A stretch of 56,244 nucleotides of DNA, filler included, from Sluysia triapertura (Eukaryota), in NCBI GenBank assembly GCA_046118255.1. It is 4 parts of 4 records of this genome, joined end to end, with 100 filler letters (N's around TTAATTAATTAA, not from the genome) between each part and the next. Parts side by side here need not be neighbours in the genome. Positions count along the whole stretch, not along the records: positions 28,758 to 44,063 come from JBJNIA010232010.1; 3 more parts are not named here. One strand, written 5' to 3'. Position numbers and translations under genes: made by a program. Below, piece by piece: positions 28,758 through 50,815 of this stretch. The notes below the pieces were generated by a model. It was not told where the DNA came from, made no database searches, and saw only the letters and a list, made by a program, of their open reading frames with translations. Numbering within the stretch: position 1 is the first letter of the stretch; the number at the start of each line of letters is the position of its first letter.

Positions 28758-29888
28758 GTCCCTGAGACTATCGAATCCTTATATTTGGTTGTGGCTAGGG
28801 GAATTGTTAAGGTGACTTTAGTTGACACCGGCGCACCCTATTACATTCGTGTACATAGTTTTTCATCCCTACACTTAACGAAAGTACATAAGAAATGTGC
28901 TGTTCTAATAGAGGCTACGGAATATCCTACGTCAATAGCAATACTATTTCCTTTGCCTCTTTCAACATTCAAATCTTTCTTGCCTAATCTTTATAAGAAT
29001 GATATCACTAATTTGGAACGCTGGAAAAATGGGACTTCTTTTACTCATGTTCCCCCTATATTGGCTTGTGATGAGGAACGTCTCGTTTTTGTTTCTTTTT
29101 CATATGCGTTCGATTTTAAAGACCATCCTCACATTACACAGCTTACCTGTACGCCTTATTCAAAACAATTTCACACTAACATTAATATAAAACCACGTCT
29201 TCGTATAAGGAATTTTCTTAGAGATATTCAGGAGATGAAAGATTCCGATATCTCTGAAGCTAAGGACATAGATGACGTGCGTCCTTTTCTTTTGGGTCAC
29301 TTGCATGATAAGATCATGGTGTCGTTGAACCCATGTCTTGTTATTAAGACTATAGATCTGCCTTTTGGATGGCTTAAGGGAGTGATTAACCTGACTAATC
29401 ACAACCTTTTGTCTTATAATACCGATGACGTAATCCAGAGAGGACGTCAGACCTTTCGTTTATTGTATCCTGTTCCGCCACGAATGACGTGCATGAGGAT
29501 GGCCTCCGAGTTAATTCCTTTATTTAATCTCATTCGTGAAAAAGACACATCCTTCATTTCAAATTGTTCTAACCCTCCTCCTTCTCTTTTTTCTCCTCCT
29601 TCTACTTCTACTCTTTTTGATACTGTCGTGGCACTTCCAACAATCAAATCTTTGACTCCACCTCCATCATTATCACCATCATCATCCTCAGCTACAAAAC
29701 AATCGTCAACGAAACCACCGCCAGTGATACCATTACGGACTACGACAGCAACCTTATCACCACCATCGACTTCCTCCAATATTGAATCTATACCGAAATC
29801 TTCATTGATCACTAATCCAACTCTTCAGCACCATCGAAAGCGGCCATATTATTGGAATAATGAAAATGTTGACTTGGATGACTATTAA
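28758..29888 (+). CDS. 5'-truncated intronless orphan ORF (>=376 aa, Ser/Pro/Thr-rich C-terminus) at the 3' end of an LTR retrotransposon
   Basis: Frame is open from the contig edge (VPETIESLYLVVARG...) to TAA 29888; long and uninterrupted in very AT-rich DNA; about 120 bp upstream of a PPT/LTR. Confidence 0.75.
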   Translation, partial: VPETIESLYLVVARGIVKVTLVDTGAPYYIRVHSFSSLHLTKVHKKCAVLIEATEYPTSIAILFPLPLSTFKSFLPNLYKNDITNLERWKNGTSFTHVPPILACDEERLVFVSFSYAFDFKDHPHITQLTCTPYSKQFHTNINIKPRLRIRNFLRDIQEMKDSDISEAKDIDDVRPFLLGHLHDKIMVSLNPCLVIKTIDLPFGWLKGVINLTNHNLLSYNTDDVIQRGRQTFRLLYPVPPRMTCMRMASELIPLFNLIREKDTSFISNCSNPPPSLFSPPSTSTLFDTVVALPTIKSLTPPPSLSPSSSSATKQSSTKPPPVIPLRTTTATLSPPSTSSNIESIPKSSLITNPTLQHHRKRPYYWNNENVDLDDY

Positions 29889-29988
29889 TGGTGTATATAT
29901 CGCTAAATCGTATTATGATAATTCTATGATTACAGTATTATATCAATGATTATTATTTTATTTTTTTTTATATCGTCTTATGATTTTA

Positions 29989-30845
29989 GATTCGAGACGA
30001 ATCTTCCCTAATGGGGAAGTGATGTAAAGATTAAAAGATTTAAAAGCAAAAGGAAAAATAAAATCTAATTATAATTAAAAAGTACAAATAAGTTAATTAA
30101 AGAATATATTAATTATTTTATTAGATAAAAATTTTTTACAAAAAGATTATAAAATGTATACTAATTATTTTATCAGATAAAAATTTTTTAACTTTTAATT
30201 AACAGTACAAAGTGTATTAGATAAAAAATTTTTTAATCAAGACAAACTAAAATCTTTTAAAATTTAAAATCTAATTAAAAAATTTTACTAAATTAATAAC
30301 TATTTTACTAAAATTATCTTAATCTTTTAATTTTAATTTTTAATTATATCTAAATCTTTTAATTTAATCTAAAAACAAACATATATAAATAGACCTGCGA
30401 AAATCTTGGAACACTCGCACAAAAAAGTTAATTTTTTAAAAGTCTTTATAAAAGTCATTTTTTGCGAAAAAACCTGCTTGTCAGATTTGAAAATCTACTC
30501 GTGGAGAGCGCTGTATTATTTCAATTGGAAATTCCTGGTTCCTGCTTAATTTGGAAATTCGATTTCATTGGAAAAGCTTCCTGCTTAATTTTGTTTCGAT
30601 TTCATTGGAAAAGCTTCCTGCTTAATTTTGTTTCGATTTCATTGGAAAAGCTTCCTGCGTAATTTTGTTTCGATTTTATTGGAAAAGCTTTCTACTTAAT
30701 TTGGAAATTCGATTTTATTGTTGTGGACGAGACTCTTGATTATTTTGGAAAACAACTGAGGATAAATTTCAAAGATTTTCGTAAGCTATTTATTTTAAGT
30801 GATTCACAAGAATAATTGTGTTAAATTACACGTAAAATTACATAA
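29989..30845 (+). mobile_element. Ty3/Gypsy-like 3' end: pre-PPT hairpin, polypurine tract and 3' LTR
   Basis: GATTCG-aga-CGAATC followed by AATGGGGAAG|TGATGTAAAG (LTR start 30020 or 30023), TATATAAATAG near 30382 and an internal minisatellite. Likely end near ...AAATTACA(TAA) 30842-30845, which is uncertain. Confidence 0.65.
30521..30720. repeat. 37-bp minisatellite (~5 copies) inside the putative LTR
   Basis: Unit CGATTTCATTGGAAAAGCTTCCTGCTTAATTTTGTTT starts at 30560, 30597, 30634 and 30671, with 39-bp variants at the edges. Confidence 0.92.
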
Positions 30846-32001
30846 ACTCACACTCAAATATTACATTTGAGTTAAAATCCATTTTTAAAATATCTATATT
30901 AAAATATTAGGAGAAATCCTAAAATTGATTTAATTATTATTATTTATTATTTATTATTTGTTCGTACTTTTTGTATTGTTTGTGTTTTGTATTTAAACTT
31001 TTTCACTGTTTAGAATAAATTTTCATAGAACACGAAACGTGTTAACATTTGTTACTTAATTATTTAAAAAAGGGTAAAAGGTTTATAAAAGTTTATAAAT
31101 AAAATAGAGAAAAGTTTTGTTAATAACAACCCTCCATTTAAAGCATTCATTACTTAATTATTTAAAACAAAAGGAAGCAGTTTATAAATAACAGAGAAAA
31201 ATTTTGATTATAAAGACCCTCCATTTAAAGATTAGGAATCATCTTTCGCAGAATTAATTTCTAACCAATAACCAAGTCTTCTTTACGATTTAAATCTTGA
31301 GTTATTGGCGAACCCAGTAGGAATAATAAATTTATAATTGTTGAAACAAAGAAAAATTAGAACAATATTAATGAATACAAATTACAAAAACAAATATAAA
31401 TACTCATTGTTTTATAAAACTTTTGTAAAAAATTTTCAAATTTAAAACACCTAAATTACCTAAATTATCATTGAGATGAGGGCAACGTACTTTTACGTTT
31501 TTCGCAGTCTGTTACACAAAAAAAGGCGATAGCATATTTGTGTTAGAGAGCGGGTAGCGTATAAATAAGATGGGTATTGTATATGTGGTTTCTTTGTTTC
31601 ATTTTATCGAGTTAGTCGGTCTTTTATTGAATGACCAAACACTAGCAAGCTTCACCAAAATAAATGTATACTCACTATATATAAACGCAGCAAAGTGTAC
31701 TCACTTGTTAAAGTGTTAATTCTTCATTATTTTATCACATGACTACGTTATTTATTTAACTATTCATCAACTTATTATTCAATAGTAATTCAAATGTTTT
31801 TATAAAGATATGTTTGTCTTAAGTCCAGAAAATATCGCATTGTGGAATCCAAAAATATACAATGTAATAAAGAAATAAAAAACAAAATGCAAAAGGATCC
31901 ATAACACCAAAGTAATATTACAAATTCGAAATAAAAACAATTACGAATTCTGGAAACTATTTAAAACCATTTAGCACGACTAAATGATAGATCTATTATA
32001 A

Positions 32002-32276
32002 CAGGGGTGGCCAAGCTCCTTGATAGTGCGAGCCATTTTTCAAAATTTGAAACTTTTTCGCGAGCAGCAATTAAAAAAGTATGAAAAAAGGGTATTCGAT
32101 GGGTCATGTCATTTTTAACGCTGCATTTAGTCTTTCATATTTGTTGTCAGTAATATAAAAGACATTTTTAAAACACATACAGAACGATAATAATTTTTTA
32201 AAATATAATAACACAAAAATGAAAAGGGAACTCGAGAGCCACAAATAATCCTTCAAAGAGCCTCGGGCCACCCCTG
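32002..32276. mobile_element. hAT (Charlie-like) MITE
   Basis: TIRs CAGGGGTGGCC / GGCCACCCCTG; 8-bp TSD TATTATAA vs TATCATAA (7/8). Confidence 0.9.
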
Positions 32277-34332
32277 TATCATAATTAATATTACTTAATA
32301 TGTACGTTTATTTGAGAATTTTCACTTTACACAAGATAACAAAGAGTGAATACATTAAAGTTGTACACATTAAAAAGTGCTAAAATATTTGGGAATCTAT
32401 AACTGGATATTTCTTCAAAAGCACACTCAAATTCCTTTATTAGATCTTATCTTATCTTATGATTCTGCCGTTTACTTCTGAATCAGAAAATTACTGCTGC
32501 TACAACTAAGACTTTGTTCTTTGGAAAGTATTTTTGAAAACGAACTTTTACATAAAATAAATGTTGATATAAAATACATTTTCTTAAACGCATTAATTAT
32601 TTTCATAATTATTAATTATTTAAAGCATTACAGATATATTTGACAAATGCGTAACTAAAGTAATATCATAAAAGTTTAGATCAAAGTTTGCCTAATTGCA
32701 CAAAGCGTCAATAAATCTTATTTAATCGGAATAAACTTTTGACATAAAATTGAAATATTTGTTTTGATAAAATGTCTGTAGAAATCATAAAACCAACAAA
32801 ATCAAGTAATAGCATCAATTAACAATTTTAATATAATTAAATTTAAAATGTTAAAAACCTGTGGGAAATGATGATAAACTTGCCGTATTTCTTGAACCTC
32901 TTTTATTGTCTCTCGATGAAAAGTTAAATATTTATGATCATTTTCCAATGTCGTGTACGCTTTTTGCAAATTAGCCAATTTTGTCTTTTGTTTTGTTACT
33001 AAAAATGACTTCTTAAATTCAGATTTAACTAACTTTTATTCAATTCTTTAGCAGTACAATAATGTGAACTCGAATTCTAAATTGACAGTAAAATTTTCTT
33101 ATGAAAGAGTTATAATTATAAATACATACTAATCAAGAGGTAAGAATACTTACTTCGTATGTGTCTGAATTGTGCAAATACAAAAATTCCTTTATTTTTT
33201 CTTCATCATAATGAAACTAAATCAAATAATAAAATATAATATGCTAACTTTTGACATAACACCTTTTATTAGGTTATTACTGAGATGAGGATATTGTTTC
33301 TTTATAGCAAGAAACAAAATGCTACGCTTTTCCAAATCACACTCCATAAATTATCCCCTCATTAACAAATAAAATATTTATTCAAAAAAAGTGTATTAAA
33401 AAATTAGAACTAAATAAAAAAACTGCAACGTTACTAAAGATTATTAAGGGTTAAATAATTTTATATAATTATTAGGAATTTCCGTATACGAGAGTTAAAT
33501 TAATAAAACAAATAAAAATGAATCATCAGTAAAATTTATGATGCAGAAAATGAAAAATAAAATTTATATTTAGAAACTACGTTTAATGAATTCTGAAATT
33601 TTTACTTAATCAATACTTAACAATTTTATATTTTATTTAATTTTATCAAGAAACACCATTAATAATGTAATGAAAAAATCATTGTTATGTTATAGTTTCA
33701 TTGTTTTATACTTATAATTATGAAAATAAATGTAGTTATAAAAATTCTGTCTTCTCTTATTGTTGCATTAGAATTTTTCCATTTTGCTATCTTAAAAATA
33801 TCAAAAATTCTATTTTTATATTTGTTACGTCTTAAGATATCTTAGTTTAACTCCATTAACTATAAATTCAAGGCTCACTAAATAACAATGAAACTCAACC
33901 TCAATTATATTCTGTATAATGCAAATATCATAATCTGACAATTATGACGAATGAATCTAAACTAATTTTGCAATTATCAATTATCATGAACACATTCAAA
34001 ATAAATAAATATAATTATGTGCTGTTAAATATATATATCTCAAAGGTTACACAATTCGTATAGCACTAATCGCCGATGACAATCCAAAAGAAAATTAAAT
34101 TTTTAAAAAATATAATTGAAGTTATACTTCAGTTAAAATTATAAGTTCTAATTAAATCAAATCAAGTAGAATTATAATTTAAGATAATAATAAAATAAAC
34201 GATTACGTTTCTCATTGGTATTGAACCATTGCTGTCATCTTTATTACTGAGTTTTTAAAATCTTACAATTACTGCTTTTTATACTTTCTTATTATCCAAT
34301 CACTCTTGCATTTACAAGATATTTCCTCTTAT

Positions 34333-34905
34333 GCAAAATAAATCTGGAGTCCGTCCGACTAACTAGGTACGATTTATATCAAAAGATGACGTCCTAATTA
34401 GATTTAAAAAGATATTTAAACAGAGTTTAAAGGACTAATCTAAATGACTTGAACTAACTAGTTCCTTAAAAATTATAGTATAGTAAATGAGTAACTCTTA
34501 ACGTACTTGGTTAAACCAGCCTTCGTGCGGTCTGGTCAATAATAATATATATTAGGCTTTAAACCAGCCTTTTTACGGTCTGGTCAATAATTAGAGATTT
34601 TATAGAAAGACAAAAATAAATTTACCAAGAAAATTCCTATTAAACAAAAAATGTAAAATATAATTACAGACTAAATATAGCAAAGCAAAGTTAATTATTA
34701 TAATAATAATATGCAGTTTGCCAACTTAAGCTTATTGCTTAGTTGGAGTCAAATACAGATTTTAAAAAATGAAATTGACCTAGCCAGTTACGGTCTAGGT
34801 GTAAAAATTATTAACAGGATTTTAAGTAAGTAAATTTTAAAACCCTATTCTTACAATTAGGGATTTTATGAAATCTTATTTAAACAAAAATTACTTCTGC
34901 ATGGA
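34333..34905 (+). promoter_or_regulatory. Structured leader with three bulged hairpins upstream of an ATG (putative LTR end plus 5' leader), copy 1
   Basis: Hairpins at 34515-34536, 34563-34584 and 34778-34800, then AAAAATTACTTCTGC-ATGGA (ATG 34901). Same architecture on the minus strand at 43246-43820. Confidence 0.5.
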
Positions 34906-36464
34906 TATTTGATGATGAGTTGAATCCTGATTCCCAAAAATTTTGTGGACTTAATTCTTCTTTAATTTTCCTATGCTTGTGTTATGTTTACAAAAAATTC
35001 TTACCTTTTTATATTATTTTCATTTATGTGGGCGTTTGTTATTGGACATTTTAAAAATTAATTAGTTTAAACAAAAATTATAATATAATTAGTTTAAACA
35101 AAAATTATAATATTTTATTTTTATAAAAATTCTAATAATTTATAATAATTTTTAAAAATTTTAATAATTTATAATATTGATAATATTTTGGTATAACTTA
35201 CAAAATAATAAAATAATTATACAATAAAGTTTTAATAATATAATAAAAATTAATAAAATAAAATCAATTATAAATCAATTAAATCACTTATTATATCAAT
35301 CATAATAAATTATTATTGAAATTAAGTAATTCAGCCACCAAATTTCAGCCACCGCCTTGATGAATATTATGATAATTAAGATGCCAAATGCCAATGCCAC
35401 TGACCTTAACATAATAATAATTTGTAGTTTGGTTCTTTCATAGTCATTTAATTATTGTGTTACATTGGTTTAATTTCAGAGTTTAATTTTTGGGGTGAAT
35501 AATTATTGATACTAAATAAGAGAATTAAGATCAAATTTATATTTGATCAAGTGAATACTTAAGTAATTGAGATTCTTTTTAAGAAAATTAAATTGATATT
35601 TATTTTAAATAATTTAATAATTTTTTTAAGACGCAACATTACGAATTAACTTGCCCGATAGAACAGTTACTACGTCTCATCAATTTGCTCGATAACAGTA
35701 ATTATTTTCCGTTAGTAGTAATAATTTCGTTCGATAACAACTTCTTTTAACAATAACTTGATAACTATTGCTTTCCCTAGAAAAATAACTGTGCCGTTAG
35801 CATCACCCAAGTTTAACAAATCGATTATTATTGTGTTAAAATAGGCATTGCTATTTATACTGCTTTGTTAAATTGTGTTCAATAATTACAGCATGCATTA
35901 ATTTTACATGATACTACACAATTTTTACACATTATTAAATTTTTATCTATATCACTGATAACTGAATTTTAATTTTTATTAATCAATCTCAATTTAATCC
36001 TAATTTAATATGATTTCCTTAATATTCTAAATCTTATTTTTAAAATGATTTTGATCGAATATTACGCTCTTGAATTTTAATTTCATATTATTTTTATCTA
36101 ATCGTAATTTAGAATAATTTTATTTATTTAATCATCTGTATAATTTCGATTTAAATTGATTATTTCTTACTAAAGTTTAAATTTATATTACCTCTATGTA
36201 ATCTCAATTTAAAATAGTTATTCTATAGAAACATCGTGATCTCAAAATTGAACATTAAAATGATTTTAGATTATTAACATTGAGCATTACATTTACAATA
36301 AAAATAGAAAAATAATAAATTAACAAATATTAAATCAAAAAATAATCTATTTTCACAAATCACAATTTATCACAGTACAATAATGATAATAATAATACAC
36401 CAAAATAAGTGGCTAAAAACTCGTTACAAAAAAAGTACAAAATAATAATATAAAAATTATTATT

Positions 36465-36762
36465 AAGGGGGAATGTATTATAAACGATATAATAAAGTTC
36501 ACCAATAAAATTCACGAAAAATTCGATAGGTGGATATATAAATATAATATATAAAAGGACTCAATCATTCTACATGTTCAGTAGCTTTAATCTCCATCAT
36601 AGATTCGCAATGTTGATGGTCTCCGCGTGCTTTCTTGTGATACCAGTATGACAAGAACTCGAAGAGTATATTGAATAATGTACCAAGACCGGCGAAAATT
36701 AAATACTGCCAACTCTGAATAAAATGGTTTTATTTTTATATTTTATAACCGAAAACGCAACA
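36465..36762 (+). mobile_element. PPT plus short (~290 bp) LTR
   Basis: AAGGGGGAA|TG at 36465-36475, internal TATATAAAAGG and AATAAA, ending ...GCAACA at 36762. Confidence 0.55.
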
Positions 36763-36917
36763 GTGTACGTGCAACAATAATGACACGAGTCACCAAGACT
36801 ACTCCTAAATAGTGGATCTCATATCTCAACTAATAATCTACTTGTTACTGTGCAACTCATATTTTATAATCCGTAATCTTACGGCGGCATATAATTGGAT
36901 AACGAATCATACAAATA

Positions 36918-37030
36918 CAGTTGGGGCCAAATTATGAGACTAAAACAGAAAGAATGTTCATGGTGTTAACCTGCTACCCTGGCCTGGAAACTCTCCAGGT
37001 GAATTCCACAGAAAACCTGTGGGAGATTAA
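36918..37030 (+). mobile_element. Tc1-family fragment (same family as 1-282)
   Basis: TA|CAGTTGGGGCCAAATTAT end and frameshifted WPGNSP..NSTENLWE remnant. Confidence 0.75.
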
Positions 37031-37774
37031 TTTTAGTTTCACCAGAATTTTTTGGAGAAAGTAGTTATTTTCCGTATTTATACACTTCTTTAAGCAAACG
37101 AGATACGTATCTTTCCAAGAAATAAAACAGAACAGTAAAATATTAAGCCAATGTCAAAAAATATTTTAAACTGCAAATTTCATCCTTACAACCTTATTAA
37201 AAAATAAAATTTAATTTTTATATAATTTCTGATTGTTTAAAAACTCTTAGACAGTGTGTCAACGCGTTTGATTGGTTTGTAAAGGAAATAATAAAATTAA
37301 AATATAAAATTGTCAATCATTTGTGGCCGTGTTTCAATGACACAGACATTCATTACAATTGTGTTTATTTTCCATTTATTCAAATTGACTTATTTCGGTC
37401 TGGCTAATAAAATCAATGGACCGCAAATTGTTAAGAGGTCTTTTATAACCGTACTTGATTTTGACGATGATATAGAATGATTCTACATCGCATAAATTCA
37501 ATATCCATTGAGTATATTTATTTTATCTCTTTGTCTCAACGTATTCAATTAATTCTCATTGTTTCTTAATGCCCATCACTCAGCAGGCAGTGACTGCCAC
37601 AATTTTGCAATGTTATTATTCTTTCTAATATAAAACAACCTCGTACAACGTATGTAGCGTCTTTTTTAATTGTTTGAACTTGACTACAAATTCTTGGAGT
37701 GATACGGGTCAATTTTAGAGAGAATATTTATCAAATTATTTATATTCTTCAAGAATTAATATAAGTAAACAAAC

Positions 37775-37999
37775 AAGAGATTCAGTTAACTCCAGCTTAG
37801 CAACGAATATGACGATTATATCGCCGATTGCACTTGACATATACCAGAATGAGTTGACCAATGATTTCATACCGTCTGGAGCTTGATCGTACGAGAACAA
37901 TAGACCTGGGATGCTGACTAGAACTTCACCGACAGATATCAGTATGTACTGAGGAAATTGCCAGAATATTGATATTACACTACCGTTGTTGATTGTTAA
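37775..37999 (-). CDS. SLC15/PepT (POT/PTR2) oligopeptide transporter internal exon (TM10-TM11)
   Basis: tttcag|...|gtttgt, 225 bp, phase 0-0; SIFWQFPQYILISVGEVLVSIPGLLFSYDQAPDGMKSLVNSFWYMSSAIGDIIVIFVA matches PepT 'QIPQY....GEV..S..GLEFSYSQAP..MKS'. Confidence 0.92.
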
Positions 38000-38207
38000 C
38001 TGAAATTACACAAGCACTCTCGTGATTAATAAATCATCTGTTGATCTGATAATGTAGAAAAAGTATGTGGAAATTAAGAAACAAACAATTCTTCAAAGGT
38101 TTTTGCAGAACGTTTAAATTGTATTGATTCTTGATTTAAAAGATGTTCATAATTAAAGATATTAGAGATTTTAAAGTTACCAAAATATATGATTAATTTG
38201 AGATATA

Positions 38208-38540
38208 CATGGTGTCCCAAAAGTAACCGAACCGCAAACGTAAATAAAAATAGGATATCAGAAATAACAAATTTAATAGGTATATTTAGTATTTAACTTC
38301 GATACAAGCACAACACTGTGACATACTTTCTGGCAAGTTTCCTCTGAAATTTGGGTTCATTTTTGCTGAATACCTTGTTCTTTAGAATTCCCCGCAGAAA
38401 AAAGTCAGATCAGTTTAAATCTAAAGTCCTTCGCTGAATTTTTAAGAATGAGGGTCCAGAAGCGCACGATGAACAAAATCAATAAGATCACGCAACAAAA
38501 GCCAATCAAAAAAGGAAATAAATAGTACGAAGATACGATC
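38208..38540 (-). mobile_element. Deleted copy of the mariner-like element at 291-965
   Basis: TA|CATGGTGTCCCAAAAGTAACCGAA... and shared GAATTTTTAAGAATGAGGGTCCAGAAG. Confidence 0.8.
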
Positions 38541-38870
38541 AGTCAAAATTAAATGTATAGAAATTCGCTTACGAAGTTATCTTTTAATACGTTGATGATT
38601 ATGACATGCACATCCGACTTTAATGTGACAGCTTAGCTGCCTCATCCACCAATGTTTTAACTCTACTGTTTTTCTTAGTGTCTTAATGGGTGTTGCATAA
38701 GTGCGTGCGGTTTTTACAATTATGAAAAATGCATACAGATCAAGAATAAAAACCATGCAAAAATTCCAGATAACAAAATGAATTAATTAAATCATTAGAA
38801 AAAAAACAAATTTCTCCATAAACGTAACAAATCATTCTGGTGCCTTCTGCAGCGTTTAAATGTTTATTAA

Positions 38871-39107
38871 CCCTTTCAACCCCGGGACCACCATATGGCG
38901 TCAATGGCGATTTTTTCTCTTACACAACTGCTATGCAAGATTCTACTAAAGTAATACGAAGAGCATAATTTTATGTTTGAACTTTGACCTATATATTTTT
39001 ACTCCACGTCAATATTTACAATTTTCATACATTTTTCCTAAATCATCATCTATAAAGACAATAAATTACCTTATATCTTAAGGAAAAAAAATTCGGGGCT
39101 GAAAGGT
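38871..39107. mobile_element. piggyBac-type MITE
   Basis: TTAA|CCCTTTCAACCCC ... GGGGCTGAAAGGT|TTAA. Confidence 0.75.
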
Positions 39108-40021
39108 TTAATAGAGATTCTGCATTTTTCTTTTCTAATAGACAAGTTTTGTTTAACTCTAGCTTTGTTTTACAAGATTTTAATTCATTTTCTTTCGATA
39201 AAACTCTTGAATACAATTTGTACATGTTATAGTAAAAACCGACAATATTATTAAATTTTTTTAGAACTTTCTTTGGTTACAATTATACTAGAATATGTTC
39301 TCAAGATAAAATCACTTTGAATTCGATTAATAATGAATCCGTTGGCAGTCGAAATTTGAAATTTCGTTACGATGATATTGTGTTGTTGCAACTGCTTGAA
39401 TTTGACAATATAACTAACTAAGTGATCTTGAAAAATATTAGGAAATTGATATGATTATGGAAAGTTATGCATTGGATGTTACATAGGTGCAATTGAGCCT
39501 GCATGGACTATGGCTGTATAATACCAAAAAAGAAAAGCGTCGCTAGTAAGAAGACAAAAAGAGACAAGAATAAAAAATAAAATAAAACAATGTTATTATG
39601 TTCTAATACCTAGGTTACTAACTATTATTATTTAATAAATGTTTAGAATTAAAAAAATTTAATGTGTATGTGAAGAAAAGTTGCAGAAGTAAGAGTGAGA
39701 GGTGTTATTGTTTATAGGAAATGTGAAATTTAAGAATTTATGTTATAAAAAGAATGGCTAAGCATATCTAGAATAAAAGTAATTAATATTTAGAGGAAAT
39801 TGGCTATATAATAAAATAAACTATAGAGAGAAATTAATTATAGAATAATATTGGTCATAGTATAATATTAGTGGAAAATACTATATGAGCAGTTTTTCGA
39901 CATATCAACTAGAATAAATAAAAATGAAACAATTTCAAGCCAATCATCATCATCATCATCATATTTGGTAACTTACTGTCCACTTGAATTTGGTTAAACT
40001 GAATAATGCTAAACTGAATAC

Positions 40022-40180
40022 TGTTGGGATGAAAAAAGGCCTAAGGTGCCATTTGGTAAAATTGACTATAATAATCTAAAATTGTTAGACGGGGCTGATA
40101 GCTCAGTGGTAGAGCAATCGAACTGCGCAGCGATGGTCCCGGGTTCGATCCCCGGTCAGTCCATTTTACGAGGTCTAACA
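40022..40180 (+). mobile_element. tRNA(Ala-like)-containing short repeat bounded by TGTTGG...CTAACA (solo-LTR/TRIM-like), copy 1
   Basis: tRNA-like part 40091-40163 has A box TAGCTCAGTGG and B box GGTTCGATCC but a disrupted anticodon arm. The 69 bp upstream is partly shared with the copies at 48161 and 50669. Confidence 0.75.
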
Positions 40181-40680
40181 AATATATATAACAAATATAA
40201 ATAGATTCTTTGCAAATCTAAATCATGACCAAATTTGTTTTAACATTTCCTAAATGTTGAAAATTGTGAAAAAGCAATATTTTTAAAAAAGCATTCTATT
40301 AATCGAGGAAACATTTATTTTAGTCTTATTAATAATAAGTTGTAATTGAAAATGTGTCTTTTGTATTGTAACAAATGTATTTAATAGGACATAACTTTGG
40401 AAACGATTAATTTTAAAACTTTAAGACTTAATATTAGACTTCATTAAATTTTACTGTTTTCGTCTAGTTATTTTTAACATATTTAAATGGATACTTTAGT
40501 AATATATTCAGCAACAATTATTCTATTTTATTCTATGTAAAATGCTCTAAAATGACTTAAGTATTTTAAAACCTTTAAAATCACTTAAAAACATTTATTT
40601 TCGAAAATAAATTATTTTTCAAAAAAAGAAAATAAAATTTATAAAAAAATTAGCTTCTAAAAAAAGAATATAAGCTTCTA

Positions 40681-40758
40681 AAATATTCTGGAACATTCCA
40701 TCGATTCCCATTGGCTTTTGTTTAGTATATAAACTAGTTTAATGAGAATCGCCATTTT
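40681..40758 (+). promoter_or_regulatory. HSE + CCAAT + TATA + YY1-like module (copy 2)
   Basis: TTCtgGAAcaTTCCATCGATT...ATTGG...TAGTATATAAACTAG...TTTAATGAGAATCGCCATTTT, homologous to 1910-1993. Confidence 0.6.
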
Positions 40759-41364
40759 TAAAATTACTAGTAAAATATTAGTAACATAAAATCCACTTAA
40801 ATATTTCTATTTTAAGTAAATATTTAGTAGATTTGACTGAATTAATTATATTATTTTGTGTCATTTATTTCAATTTTAATAACATTTAAACTGCTTTTTT
40901 AATTCTTCAAAAATCAATGTTGATGTTAAAAATGTTGAATTGTAAAAATCATCATTTAATGTCCCTTTAGATGGATTTAATTCTATACATTTGATTTCTA
41001 AATCATAATTTTGCAGATAAACTGTATCTATAACCAAAATAACTTATTGGGATTTTACTTTAAAATATTTAGTAAAGTCAATTTTATTAAAGTTTTGGTC
41101 TAATACTCGTTTTTGAAGTATGGGTATTTTGGTAACAGAACTATTAAATTTGATTGGGATAATTTATTTTCTGAATTTTTATCATATGTAATTTATCATA
41201 TTTTTATCGTATATCGTATTGTTAAAATTATTAGTAACAATATATCGATATCAGTTTAAGTAGAATCACAATAATTTCAATATTCACTAGATCAAGTATA
41301 AAATATCACACATTTTCTTATTTTAATAATTATATTTATTCAACCTCAAAATTACTTTATTCAA

Positions 41365-41920
41365 TTAAATCGCCGGCGTTTCATAATGAAATGTTGCGCG
41401 ACTATCACTAAACCGCCGGGGTTGCATTAATGCAATCTGTAACATGTTTGTTAACAACGCATCTTTATTGATGGTCTTACGTGTTTTATCTTATCAATTG
41501 AAATGATACTGATTTAACCATTTTCTTATGCACACTTAGTTTCTTTGTGTACATTTATGTATGAGTTTCATACGCGATATATTTTTCCGTTAAATGAATT
41601 TTTCCTCAATATTTTAAAAAATAGTTATAAAATATTTAAAAAGAATGTCGATGTGTCACGATGAAAAAATCTAGGCAGATGAAGAACAATTTAGAAGAGT
41701 AATTTAGAAAATTCTGAAGACGAAGATTTTATTGACATTTCCGAAGATAGTGATGATTCTGAAATTATACGCGTCACAGAAAAATGTAAAACTAATTAAC
41801 CTATCGATACACCTACTGACTCAGAATCCGACATAAATGATGTTGAAAATGATTAGTCTCAAAGTGATAATGAACCATGTCTTGAACAATGTTTGGGAAA
41901 TACTGGAGTTACTTCAAATT
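41365..41920 (+). mobile_element. piggyBac left end with decayed acidic transposase N-terminus, interrupting another repeat
   Basis: TTAA-flanked GC-rich end, then LENSEDEDFIDISEDSDDSE...DNEPCLEQCLGNTGV remnant. The flanks (41270-41365, 42000-42105) occur almost contiguously at 51000-51200. Confidence 0.55.
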
Positions 41921-43245
41921 TCGAATTAAAAGATGCGAATAAGTATATCTGCGATTAAAATAATTGGCTGTCAAAGTGTTAGTAACAATAATTTAATAAT
42001 ATAATAATTACAAAATCAAAGTTGCTATTATACGTCTCCGCTTTAACAATAATATGAGTGCATTAACTAAACATGATTAAATCTCAAAATTAAAAATAAT
42101 TTTTATAATGTTAGTATGTAAATATGTTTAATTCAATTATTCAATACTTTATATAAATCGAGTTTGAAAATATACATTATAGCAAAGAATATGAAATTGT
42201 TATTTTATTGTTTTTTGAGGATTATTATTATTATATTACCTATTATTTATTAAAATTATATTATTATTAAATTTATATTATTTAATGTTATTAAAAAAGC
42301 ACTATAGTCATGTCTAGAGTAAACCATTAAATATTAGTGCAAAAGTATGTTTATGCGTAGTATTAAAGAGGTCACGACATTAAAAATAATATAAATAATA
42401 GATTGAAAATTCAGTTAACACGCAGTATTTTCATAATTCTAAAGCTCTCTGTAATATTGAACAAGACAAGTGTGAATAAGAATATTGTAATTAAAGCTGG
42501 GGGAATCGATCTATGTAAATTGAATTTAATTAAACGATTTCAAGAATATTAACTCTACAATAATACTTTACAGCCGATGGACATACTAAAACAAATTCTA
42601 AAATATTCGTTACTTTATACTATGTAGACTACTCAATCTTAATAAGGAAATTAAAATTTACGTAAACTTTTAATTTTTTAAAGGATAATTGAAAATTTAC
42701 TTATTTACGTAAAATATTTATTAAAATACTATTATTACGACTTATTATCAACAAGACAATAATAATAAAATTTCTTTTACCAGTTATTTTAACATTATCA
42801 ATGATTCTGATAAATATATAACGCATTACTTTGATGAAAAAATATATTATGAATTATACTACCAATTATAATCCCTTTTAATCACTTTTGTTGAGTTATT
42901 TTTATTATAATTTGTCTTATCTGATAATTTTGTTCTATTATCTTTTATTTGATTGTAAATTTTATTAAAATCATTATTAATATAAAATAATCGATACTTT
43001 AAATAAATCTTAAAAAATAAATACAGTAAATTTAAAATTTAAAAGTAATTAATTAAAAAATTACAATTATTCTAAAGAAAGGAAAGTTTATGTTGTTTAA
43101 ACAAATCAGTTTGAAAAATAAACAAGATCGCTACTCAAATTTATGTATAAAATATAGAAAACTTTTAAAATTACGTAATTTTAAGTTATTCAAGTTTCAA
43201 TTCTCAGTTTTCGAGAGCAATTTTCAAATTCTTTAATTTTTGGAT

Positions 43246-43820
43246 TCCATGCACGAGTAATTTTTTTGTGTAGGTTTATAAATCTCACTGTAAGCAAGGT
43301 GATATGAAATACTACTTAATTTCATTAACTTTGTTCTAGACCGTTAAAGGCTAGTTTAACTTTGACTTAAAATCACAAAAAATACTAACGAATTTACTAT
43401 CCAATAAGTATTGTTTAAAATAATTATAATTATATATTTTGTATTGAGCCTCATTTATACATTAGGTGTATAAGTTACTTAATAAACTTTACTAGTTCTT
43501 TATTGTTTTTATAATTATTAAAATAGTTAGAAAAAATATCACCAGTTGTTTAGACTAGACTTAATAAAACTTATTCAAAAGTTACTAGACCGTAAAAGGC
43601 TAGTTTAACTAAACTTCATACTAGACCATACTAGACTAGTTTAATCGTCATTCAAAATATTTTGTGATTAGTAAGATAAGTGAGATACATAAGACGATTA
43701 AGTTAGCCTGTACTAAAATAATTTTTCTTGTTTTTGAAACTTGCTTTAAACCCTATTAAAACATTTTCCACGTTGATATAAACCGTGTGTGTTAGGTGGA
43801 CTTTAAGTTTATTTTGTAAG
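43246..43820 (-). promoter_or_regulatory. Structured leader with three bulged hairpins upstream of an ATG, copy 2
   Basis: Minus-strand TTAAAC-TAG-YC-N-GG-T-CTAG units at about 43620-43644, 43584-43608 and 43336-43359, then AAAAATTACTCGTGC-ATGGA (ATG 43250). Confidence 0.5.
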
Positions 43821-43972
43821 TATAAGATTTAAATTTCTAATATAACACTTGTAGTTTGATAAAAAGATATGTTACGAATTATTATCATTTTGTTAATTAT
43901 ATTTATGAATTGTAAATTAAGTATACTTTTTCGAATTGTAAACTTAAGTTAAATCTCACTATTTTGTTATTT

Positions 43973-44063
43973 TGTTAGACTTCGTAAAATGGACTGGCCG
44001 GGGATCGAACCCGGGACCATCGTCTGCGCAGTCCGACTGCTCTACCACTGAGCTATCAGCCCC
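43973..44063 (-). mobile_element. tRNA-containing repeat, copy 2 (cut by the contig end)
   Basis: GGGGCTGATAGCTCAGTGGTAGAGCAGTCGG...GGTTCGATCCCGGCCAGTCCATTTTACGAAGTCTAACA on the minus strand. Confidence 0.8.
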
Positions 44064-50668: not shown

Positions 50669-50815
50669 TGTTACATTTCATAAAATGGACTGAACGGGAA
50701 TCGAACCCGGCATCTCTCGCTTCACAGCTTTGCAGTTCGATACTCTGACCACTGAGCTATCAGCCTCGTCGAACAATTTTGTTCTATTATACTATCACTA
50801 TTCTATGGCACCTTA
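50669..50815 (-). mobile_element. tRNA-containing repeat, copy 4
   Basis: Minus strand: TAAGGTGCCAT...AAAATTGTTCGAC-GAGGCTGATAGCTCAGTGGT...GGTTCGATTCCCGTTCAGTCCATTTTATGAAATGTAACA. Confidence 0.75.

Follow-up and report, generated by a model that had tools for sequence, protein, structure and literature searches.

Bulged-A hairpin arrays in the LTRs of a gag-env-pol Ty3/gypsy element of Sluysia triapertura, a putative packaging-type or response-type RNA signal

The window analysed here is a stretch of 56,244 nucleotides from Sluysia triapertura (assembly GCA_046118255.1), and both hairpin loci are located in the third of its four joined parts (28758-44063). Each locus is a lone long terminal repeat (LTR): copy A of 1099 bp (34313..35411, minus strand, sense start TG at 35411) and copy B of 965 bp (42889..43853, plus strand), both with ends that are sharp across copies. 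TG..CA termini are common to the dispersed copies, and both window copies end in TA instead of CA. A preliminary description had reported a triad of hairpins shared by two diverged copies. The six hairpins were found at the claimed places (plus strand 34516, 34564 and 34780; minus strand 43639, 43603 and 43354), as were all parts of the common layout at each locus (CAAAATAAA..AGTCC, TTTATATCA, a stem with CTTACA and TTACTnnTGCATGG). The hairpin pattern had no further match in the window, and a looser pattern gave one extra, unrelated match. The extent originally assigned to the feature, 34333..34905, was too short for these units. Instead of forming a pair, the loci belong to a set of more than 1000 dispersed copies: searching the genome with each locus returned 1027 (A) and 245 (B) first-look candidates. 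The spacers between the hairpins, described as unalignable, align weakly between copies A and B (68% over 239 nt).

Both loci are LTRs of an LTR retrotransposon, which is practically certain from the flanks of related copies. A purine tract precedes the LTR at loci linked to internal sequence (L048, L127, L128, L132, L139, L142, L153 and L154); the start sequence of copy A follows it in L048, L127 and L128, and that of copy B in L153. At the other end, the LTR end word CTTGCA stands before a tRNA-Lys-like primer site, which we take to be that of tRNA-Lys, with 31 matches vs 1 in the control. In 27 of 30 loci (L253-L282) the LTR end is separated from the primer site by a spacer of 5 nt; an earlier pattern restricted to gaps of 0-4 nt had given 17 matches vs 9 and nothing consistent, the true gap being 5. 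Most elements have a gap of 0-3 nt at this place, and the long gap may reflect unusual end processing by the integrase. A similar gap was seen between the purine tract and TG (L048, L127, L128). Of the 30 loci, 13 have gag on the strand of the primer site and downstream of it, 13 have hairpins upstream of the primer site, and 7 have both, these seven being related subfamilies and none exactly that of copy A. Because primer site and gag follow one LTR end and the purine tract precedes the other, the sense strand is opposite to the strand on which the hairpins had been read, and the unpaired T of that reading is an A bulge on the sense strand. Exact 4-bp target duplications flank 3 of the 10 complete copies vs 1 of 90 cross pairs, where the ten had both ends by pattern and the ends of three copies are doubtful; the flanking 4-mers of the window copies are identical at 2/4 letters for copy A and 3/4 for copy B. 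Copies with internal deletions or rearrangements are frequent, as are LTRs that have inserted into related elements (L129, L154, L155, L237, L239). A repeat present in several flanks was set aside as an unrelated abundant repeat of varying orientation.

The carrier is a high-copy gag-env-pol Ty3/gypsy element, whose whole gene order was pieced together from separate contigs, none of those examined carrying a complete element. One contig (L242) holds an LTR end with the terminal stem of the family, the primer site, gag, a glycoprotein gene and pol, and another (L153) holds integrase, a membrane ORF, a RING ORF and a 3' ORF (ORFX) upstream of a B-type LTR start. Gag contains a zinc knuckle. The glycoprotein between gag and pol was assigned to the Pfam family Monjiviricetes_fusion (E 3.7e-58), and in L234 its end and the protease are in one frame. 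The order protease, reverse transcriptase, RNase H, integrase in L234, L236 and L242 is that of Ty3/gypsy elements (Metaviridae), and the best solved-structure match of the reverse transcriptase, from a sister-clade copy, is Ty3 Gag-Pol (E 1.5e-47). Several additional coding features were observed. A second protease-like domain follows the integrase in frame (L147:3737-5128, L243:304-2019; Pfam E 3e-5 and 2e-4), and the outside proteins P0122 and P0123 likewise have extra protease-like stretches. The RING finger ORF before ORFX (L147:8080-8646; zf-RING_2, E 7.8e-8) has its own pyrimidine tract and acceptor. Weak hits to the Bcl-2 family upstream of the glycoprotein (L234:4217-5830, E 0.03; L238:2986-3651, E 0.002) were below the cut-off.

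Other classes of element were considered and rejected. Non-autonomous Helitron2/Helentron elements make no target duplication, insert at T-rich sites and have neither purine tract nor primer site; here 4-bp duplications, a purine tract and a primer site are all present. DIRS and Ginger-like DNA transposons do not agree with the purine tract and primer site found here and with the lack of a long terminal inverted repeat. The LTR ends, the 4-bp duplication and the env gene do not fit Troyka, which is characterized in the available text by CG..CG ends, a 3-bp duplication and no env (PMC12440569). By gene order the carrier is likened to the GAG-ENV-POL Ty3/gypsy errantiviruses with HSV/gB-type env, which have been reported from Platyhelminthes, Nematoda and Bryozoa and include six elements of 14.5-18 kb in Schmidtea mediterranea (PMC13524379, available part). 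Shared with them are gag, a class III-type glycoprotein, protease, reverse transcriptase, RNase H, integrase and a flatworm host, whereas the second protease-like domain, the membrane ORF, the RING ORF and the dead exonuclease described below are found in the carrier only, as far as the available part of that source describes its elements. No LTR or primer site is given there for the Schmidtea elements, and its main text contains neither "stem-loop" nor "RING" and uses "hairpin" solely for protein structure. As for the host, the assembly has four long COX1 copies, and the AT-rich copy carries AAA at conserved Asn sites, as in the flatworm/echinoderm code. Three different GC-rich, fish-like mitochondrial COX1 copies (L335, L336, L337) indicate foreign DNA in the assembly.

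ORFX is predicted to be a dead exonuclease. Its structural model (pLDDT 79.9) comprises a jelly-roll domain followed by an ISG20-like exonuclease fold (vs ISG20: Z 13.5, rmsd 3.5 over 139 residues; Foldseek E 1.8e-5), while a first model had a pLDDT of 39.7 and its fold matches were set aside. The acidic residues of ExoI and ExoII are missing in every aligned genomic ORFX and present in two outside homologues; a profile search returned 6 distant homologues and a word-index search none. In the hairpin-bearing clade, a pyrimidine tract and a phase-2 acceptor were recognised in front of ORFX in 6 of 8 copies; by the rule used, two copies are without an acceptor, and in two of the eight an in-frame Met occurs farther upstream. 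The bdelloid elements Juno and Vesta likewise have a DEDD-fold ORF just before the 3' LTR (DEDDy ORF3), but they keep the catalytic D/E residues and have no env, whereas the carrier has an ISG20-like fold with lost acids and a preceding jelly-roll; "hairpin" is not mentioned in the available text of that report (PMC5408684).

A sister clade has the same gene set, with an ORFX 45-50% identical to that of the hairpin-bearing clade and starting at its own ATG in 23 of 26 copies. One member lies in the window and is not part of copies A and B: its ORFX, with jelly-roll and exonuclease fold, occupies 28758..29888 (plus strand), and its purine tract and LTR, mapped only to 31000, occupy 30002..31000 (plus strand), the LTR starting at about 30020-30023 and lacking the hairpin core. 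This is the LTR start at 30020 to which TTTATATCA had been related; it belongs to a clade without these hairpins, and TTTATATCA, which occurs 9 times in the window, is at the two loci an unrelated part of the LTR terminal stem. None of the 10 sister-clade LTRs with a donor found had the hairpin core, and other hairpins occur at that place. Because a clade with the same genes is without the core, the motif is not required family-wide. At 30518-30720, ahead of its donor, the sister LTR in the window carries a ~40-nt tandem repeat with a small palindrome; the tandem repeats seen at the corresponding place in other sister LTRs are unrelated to it.

On the sense strand, the hairpin module has a lower stem of 5 bp whose sequence is free, followed by a bulged A and an upper stem of 2 bp; its (G/U)UAA loop is 5-8 nt long and begins GUAA or UUAA. 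Four hairpins, not three, are present per locus on the sense strand of the LTR: the triad first described is there, and the CTTACA stem, taken for a separate element, is a fourth copy of the same bulged hairpin. It is hairpin 1 of copy A (34843..34862, minus strand; upper stem UU/AA), which is followed on the minus strand by hairpin 2 (34778..34800; fold z -2.8), hairpin 3 (34564..34583; z -3.3) and hairpin 4 (34516..34535; z -3.5), whose loop differs from the usual GUAA. Copy B carries on the plus strand hairpin 1 (43282..43303), with upper stem CU/AG and one lower-stem mismatch, whose predicted minimum-energy fold is in another register without the bulge; hairpins 2 (43336..43354) and 3 (43585..43603), found by both pattern match and fold; and a decayed hairpin 4 (43621..43639), whose upper stem has a C.A mismatch when read in sense. 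A predicted terminal stem lies at 34359..34401 in copy A (minus strand, including TTTATATCA) and at 43752..43796 in copy B (plus strand), and a comparable stem was seen ahead of the primer site both in L242 and in loci of the L253 type. The 3' halves of the LTRs fold at z -2.95 (A) and -1.22 (B). In some lineages there are up to five or six hairpins, the module being repeated 2-6 times per LTR.

Genome-wide, the strict motif was found 1514 times vs 0 for the reversed control, and the hairpin core at 5073 sites vs 391 for the control. When the hairpins were masked, 27 of 30 and 27 of 28 sampled motif loci still matched anchored LTRs on the same strand (54 of 58 together), 6 and 10 of the two sets additionally matching LTRs on the opposite strand. 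The preliminary description had placed the hairpins in a retroelement leader; they lie instead within the LTR itself, 200-600 nt before the primer site. In L242, one bulged-A hairpin variant is located past the primer site, in the leader before gag; in 28 related loci no such hairpin was found between primer site and gag. A metagenome scan for the motif gave 24 hits; paired arms and AT-rich context were absent from all of them, and they were taken as chance. With Rfam covariance models no match to the hairpins was obtained, the only hits being three tRNA-like ones elsewhere in the window (E up to 1); tRNA-like units with broken anticodon arms were seen at 40092-40163, 43990-44062 and 50686-50766. 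A look-alike of U5 snRNA loop 1, an snRNA-type promoter, RNase P/MRP and telomerase RNA were rejected, as there was no Rfam support and the copy number is high.

The hairpins are, with little room for doubt, a selected single-stranded structure. Among 32 hairpins anchored on the core in the first 29 loci, lower-stem positions were paired in 81% of cases in register vs 20-21% when slid. Lower-stem pairs 1, 3 and 5 beat all 5000 shuffles and pair 4 was equalled by 6 of them, while pair 2 is nearly invariant and hence uninformative for covariation. In 208 cores, 21 left-arm types recur, with letters wholly different between lineages, and 15 of the 21 are paired at all five positions; at the pair next to the bulge G-C, C-G, U-A and A-U are all in use. 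The covariation was counted by script without a tree and, because the copies are related, the counts overstate independent events; they bear out the earlier claims that the stems covary and that the signal, in its fixed context, is a structure-selected one of an LTR retroelement. Hairpin 1, found within 75 nt of the predicted donor in 25 of 38 LTRs, exchanges its upper stem (UU/AA in 15, CC/GG in 5, CU/AG in 3 and wobble in 2). Dimerisation, which had also been suggested, is not favoured, as the loops are not self-complementary and the lower-stem types are mostly non-palindromic.

Less is said by these data about the strand on which the structure works. Wobble in lower-stem pairs 1-5 showed no strand preference (G.U 27, A.C 27), and at pair 6 G.U was on the sense strand in 51 cases vs 2, from few lineages; these counts were pooled over sites inside and outside LTRs, most LTR ends having been missed by the end pattern. 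Both strands fold, and of the eight window hairpins 6 are more stable on the sense strand and 2 on the antisense strand.

Along the sense strand of the LTR, a TATA-like box comes first, then ATG-N5-GTAA and the first two hairpins; hairpins 3 and 4 lie beyond an AT-rich gap and are followed by the terminal stem and the LTR end. The TATA-like box, a predicted promoter by its sequence word, lies at 35004..35013 (minus strand) in copy A, and 19 of 25 LTRs have such a word 80-190 nt ahead of the predicted donor. The ATG-N5-GTAA word (34891..34903, minus strand, in copy A; 43248..43260, plus strand, in copy B) is inferred to be a start-codon mini-exon with its splice donor, by which the 5' hairpins would be intronic. 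At 38 sites chosen by an ATG-GT word near a hairpin, the spacing from ATG to GT was 5 nt in 27 and 8 nt in 5, so that phase 2 is kept in 32 of 38; hairpin 1 begins 31-37 nt after the predicted donor. The ATG previously read as an ORF start on the other strand runs into a stop after 3 and 5 codons at the two loci and is the palindromic CATG of this predicted mini-exon. AATAAA was found ahead of the distal hairpin cluster in 9 of 23 LTRs vs 2.9 expected, and its reverse complement in 12 of 23; copy A has no AATAAA at that place.

Operator hairpins of the leviviruses MS2 and Qbeta have a lower stem, a 5' bulged A, a short upper stem and fixed loop letters, and the motif here has the same stem-bulge-loop plan, by analogy only. 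A hairpin of the totivirus L-A likewise has a sequence-free lower stem, a 5' bulged A, a short upper stem and fixed loop letters (PMC8951182, available text), and MS2 has been reported to have multiple packaging signals (PMC4751978, available text). These viruses and their proteins are unrelated to the carrier, and the loop here is 5-8 nt long with a GUAA or UUAA start. Retroviral and Ty Psi regions are structured 5' regions with bulges and purine-rich loops behind the main donor. The array here, which would likewise lie behind the donor, differs in that every copy stands before the primer site, within the LTR, and in that a single small module recurs 2-6 times; this comparison, and the statement of 2016 that the RNA structure of Ty3 was uncharacterised (PMC4974528), follow the accessible parts of the sources (PMC12789967, PMC4974528). 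The response elements RexRE of HTLV and RmRE of MMTV and the lentiviral TAR are also LTR RNA structures of elements with spliced accessory ORFs, as described in the accessible part of PMC12789967; the carrier has no homologue of Rex, Rem or Tat, its candidate partner being by prediction an exonuclease-fold protein. No published description of these LTR hairpins was found in the open-access literature, to which the search was confined.

It is probable that the hairpins act as sense RNA bound by a protein. The array is likely a repeated protein-binding tag, and its leading candidate reader is Gag, for packaging of the unspliced genomic RNA; that the protein is Gag and the job packaging is a tentative assignment, somewhat short of even odds (about 0.4). 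Transcription would start behind the TATA-like box, and ATG-N5-GTAA would serve as the splice donor joined to the 3' accessory ORFs. If splicing removes all 5' hairpins, only unspliced RNA would have them at its 5' end. The protein would recognise the bulged A and the (G/U)UAA loop, with the stems merely holding the shape, and Gag would select the hairpin-bearing unspliced RNA. The position after the predicted TATA box and donor would fit a retroviral-type packaging signal. In the available text of two reports, retroviral packaging signals are stem-loops with bulges and unpaired purines bound by Gag (PMC12789967), and totivirus packaging hairpins require the A bulge (PMC8951182). If hairpins 1 and 2 lie in R, they would also be present at the 3' end of spliced RNAs, which would blur a packaging role.

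The same array could be read by ORFX. Made from spliced RNA, it would bind the hairpins in a Rev/Rex-like switch that promotes export, stability or non-splicing of the genomic RNA, a possibility on the unlikely side; here the candidate element protein is given by the predicted fold and the predicted splice. This is consistent with the modelled ISG20-like fold without catalytic acids, with the position of hairpin 1 31-37 nt behind the predicted donor, with inactive DEDD domains known to retain RNA binding (Maelstrom, EXD1; PMC5408684, available text) and with Rex and Rem response elements in or over the LTR (PMC12789967, available text). However, the sister clade retains ORFX without the motif and, this being a single split, gives no sign of co-evolution. 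A fuller version is a little less probable again: through splicing, the LTR would supply the start codon of the dead exonuclease, which in turn would bind the hairpins of that very intron and shift output from spliced to genomic RNA. Bulge and loop are constant across lineages whose Gag differs by 20-45%, which would suit an unchanging partner, such as a host RNA-binding protein acting in transport, in stability or, jointly with U1 at the donor, in the choice of the poly(A) site, a control of the foamy-virus kind. An LTR donor upstream of the poly(A) signal has indeed been described in foamy virus (PMC3694450, available text), but foamy-virus control works by donor occlusion and not by repeated hairpins, the host partner is only hypothetical, and the distribution of poly(A) signals does not fix the site; we regard this as doubtful, below either form of the ORFX reading.

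Readings at the level of DNA fare worse. The structure might work while the element is reverse-transcribed, in single-stranded cDNA (strong-stop DNA or strand transfer) and perhaps on the bulged-T strand. This would agree with the folding of both strands, the early copying of R-U5 and the absence of wobble bias at pairs 1-5, but the G.U excess at pair 6 and the greater sense stability of 6/8 window hairpins speak against it. Strand transfer is not known to require that loop and bulge stay constant in as many as five or six copies, and the reading is quite improbable. Least probable are transcription-factor sites in duplex DNA, or local inverted repeats that are neutral. The CC..GG flanking an A/T-rich core resembles a CArG box (CC-N6-GG), but the CC..GG spacing varies from 5 to 8, mostly 7 and 6, hairpin 1 exchanges CC/GG for UU/AA, and the flanks covary. 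Reading by Gag for packaging stays our preferred, tentative explanation.

The signal is real, structure-selected and repeated, and it lies in the LTR of a known kind of element; in its manner of working it would resemble a packaging or response element, and its membership in either class is putative. Cis-acting RNA signals of Ty3/gypsy elements have been poorly mapped so far, and the thousands of diverged copies are a natural covariation screen that defines this one to the nucleotide in a little-studied gag-env-pol lineage. Two candidate partners can be named, Gag and ORFX, and each is plausibly an RNA binder as judged from the domain content and the model. If ORFX is not the reader, a well-defined LTR signal of moderate interest is left. 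If it is, Rev/Rex-like control would have arisen outside the retroviruses, from a nuclease fold, and should the ORFX switch be true, hairpin and protein would form a new compact pair of the MS2 type, from an animal element.
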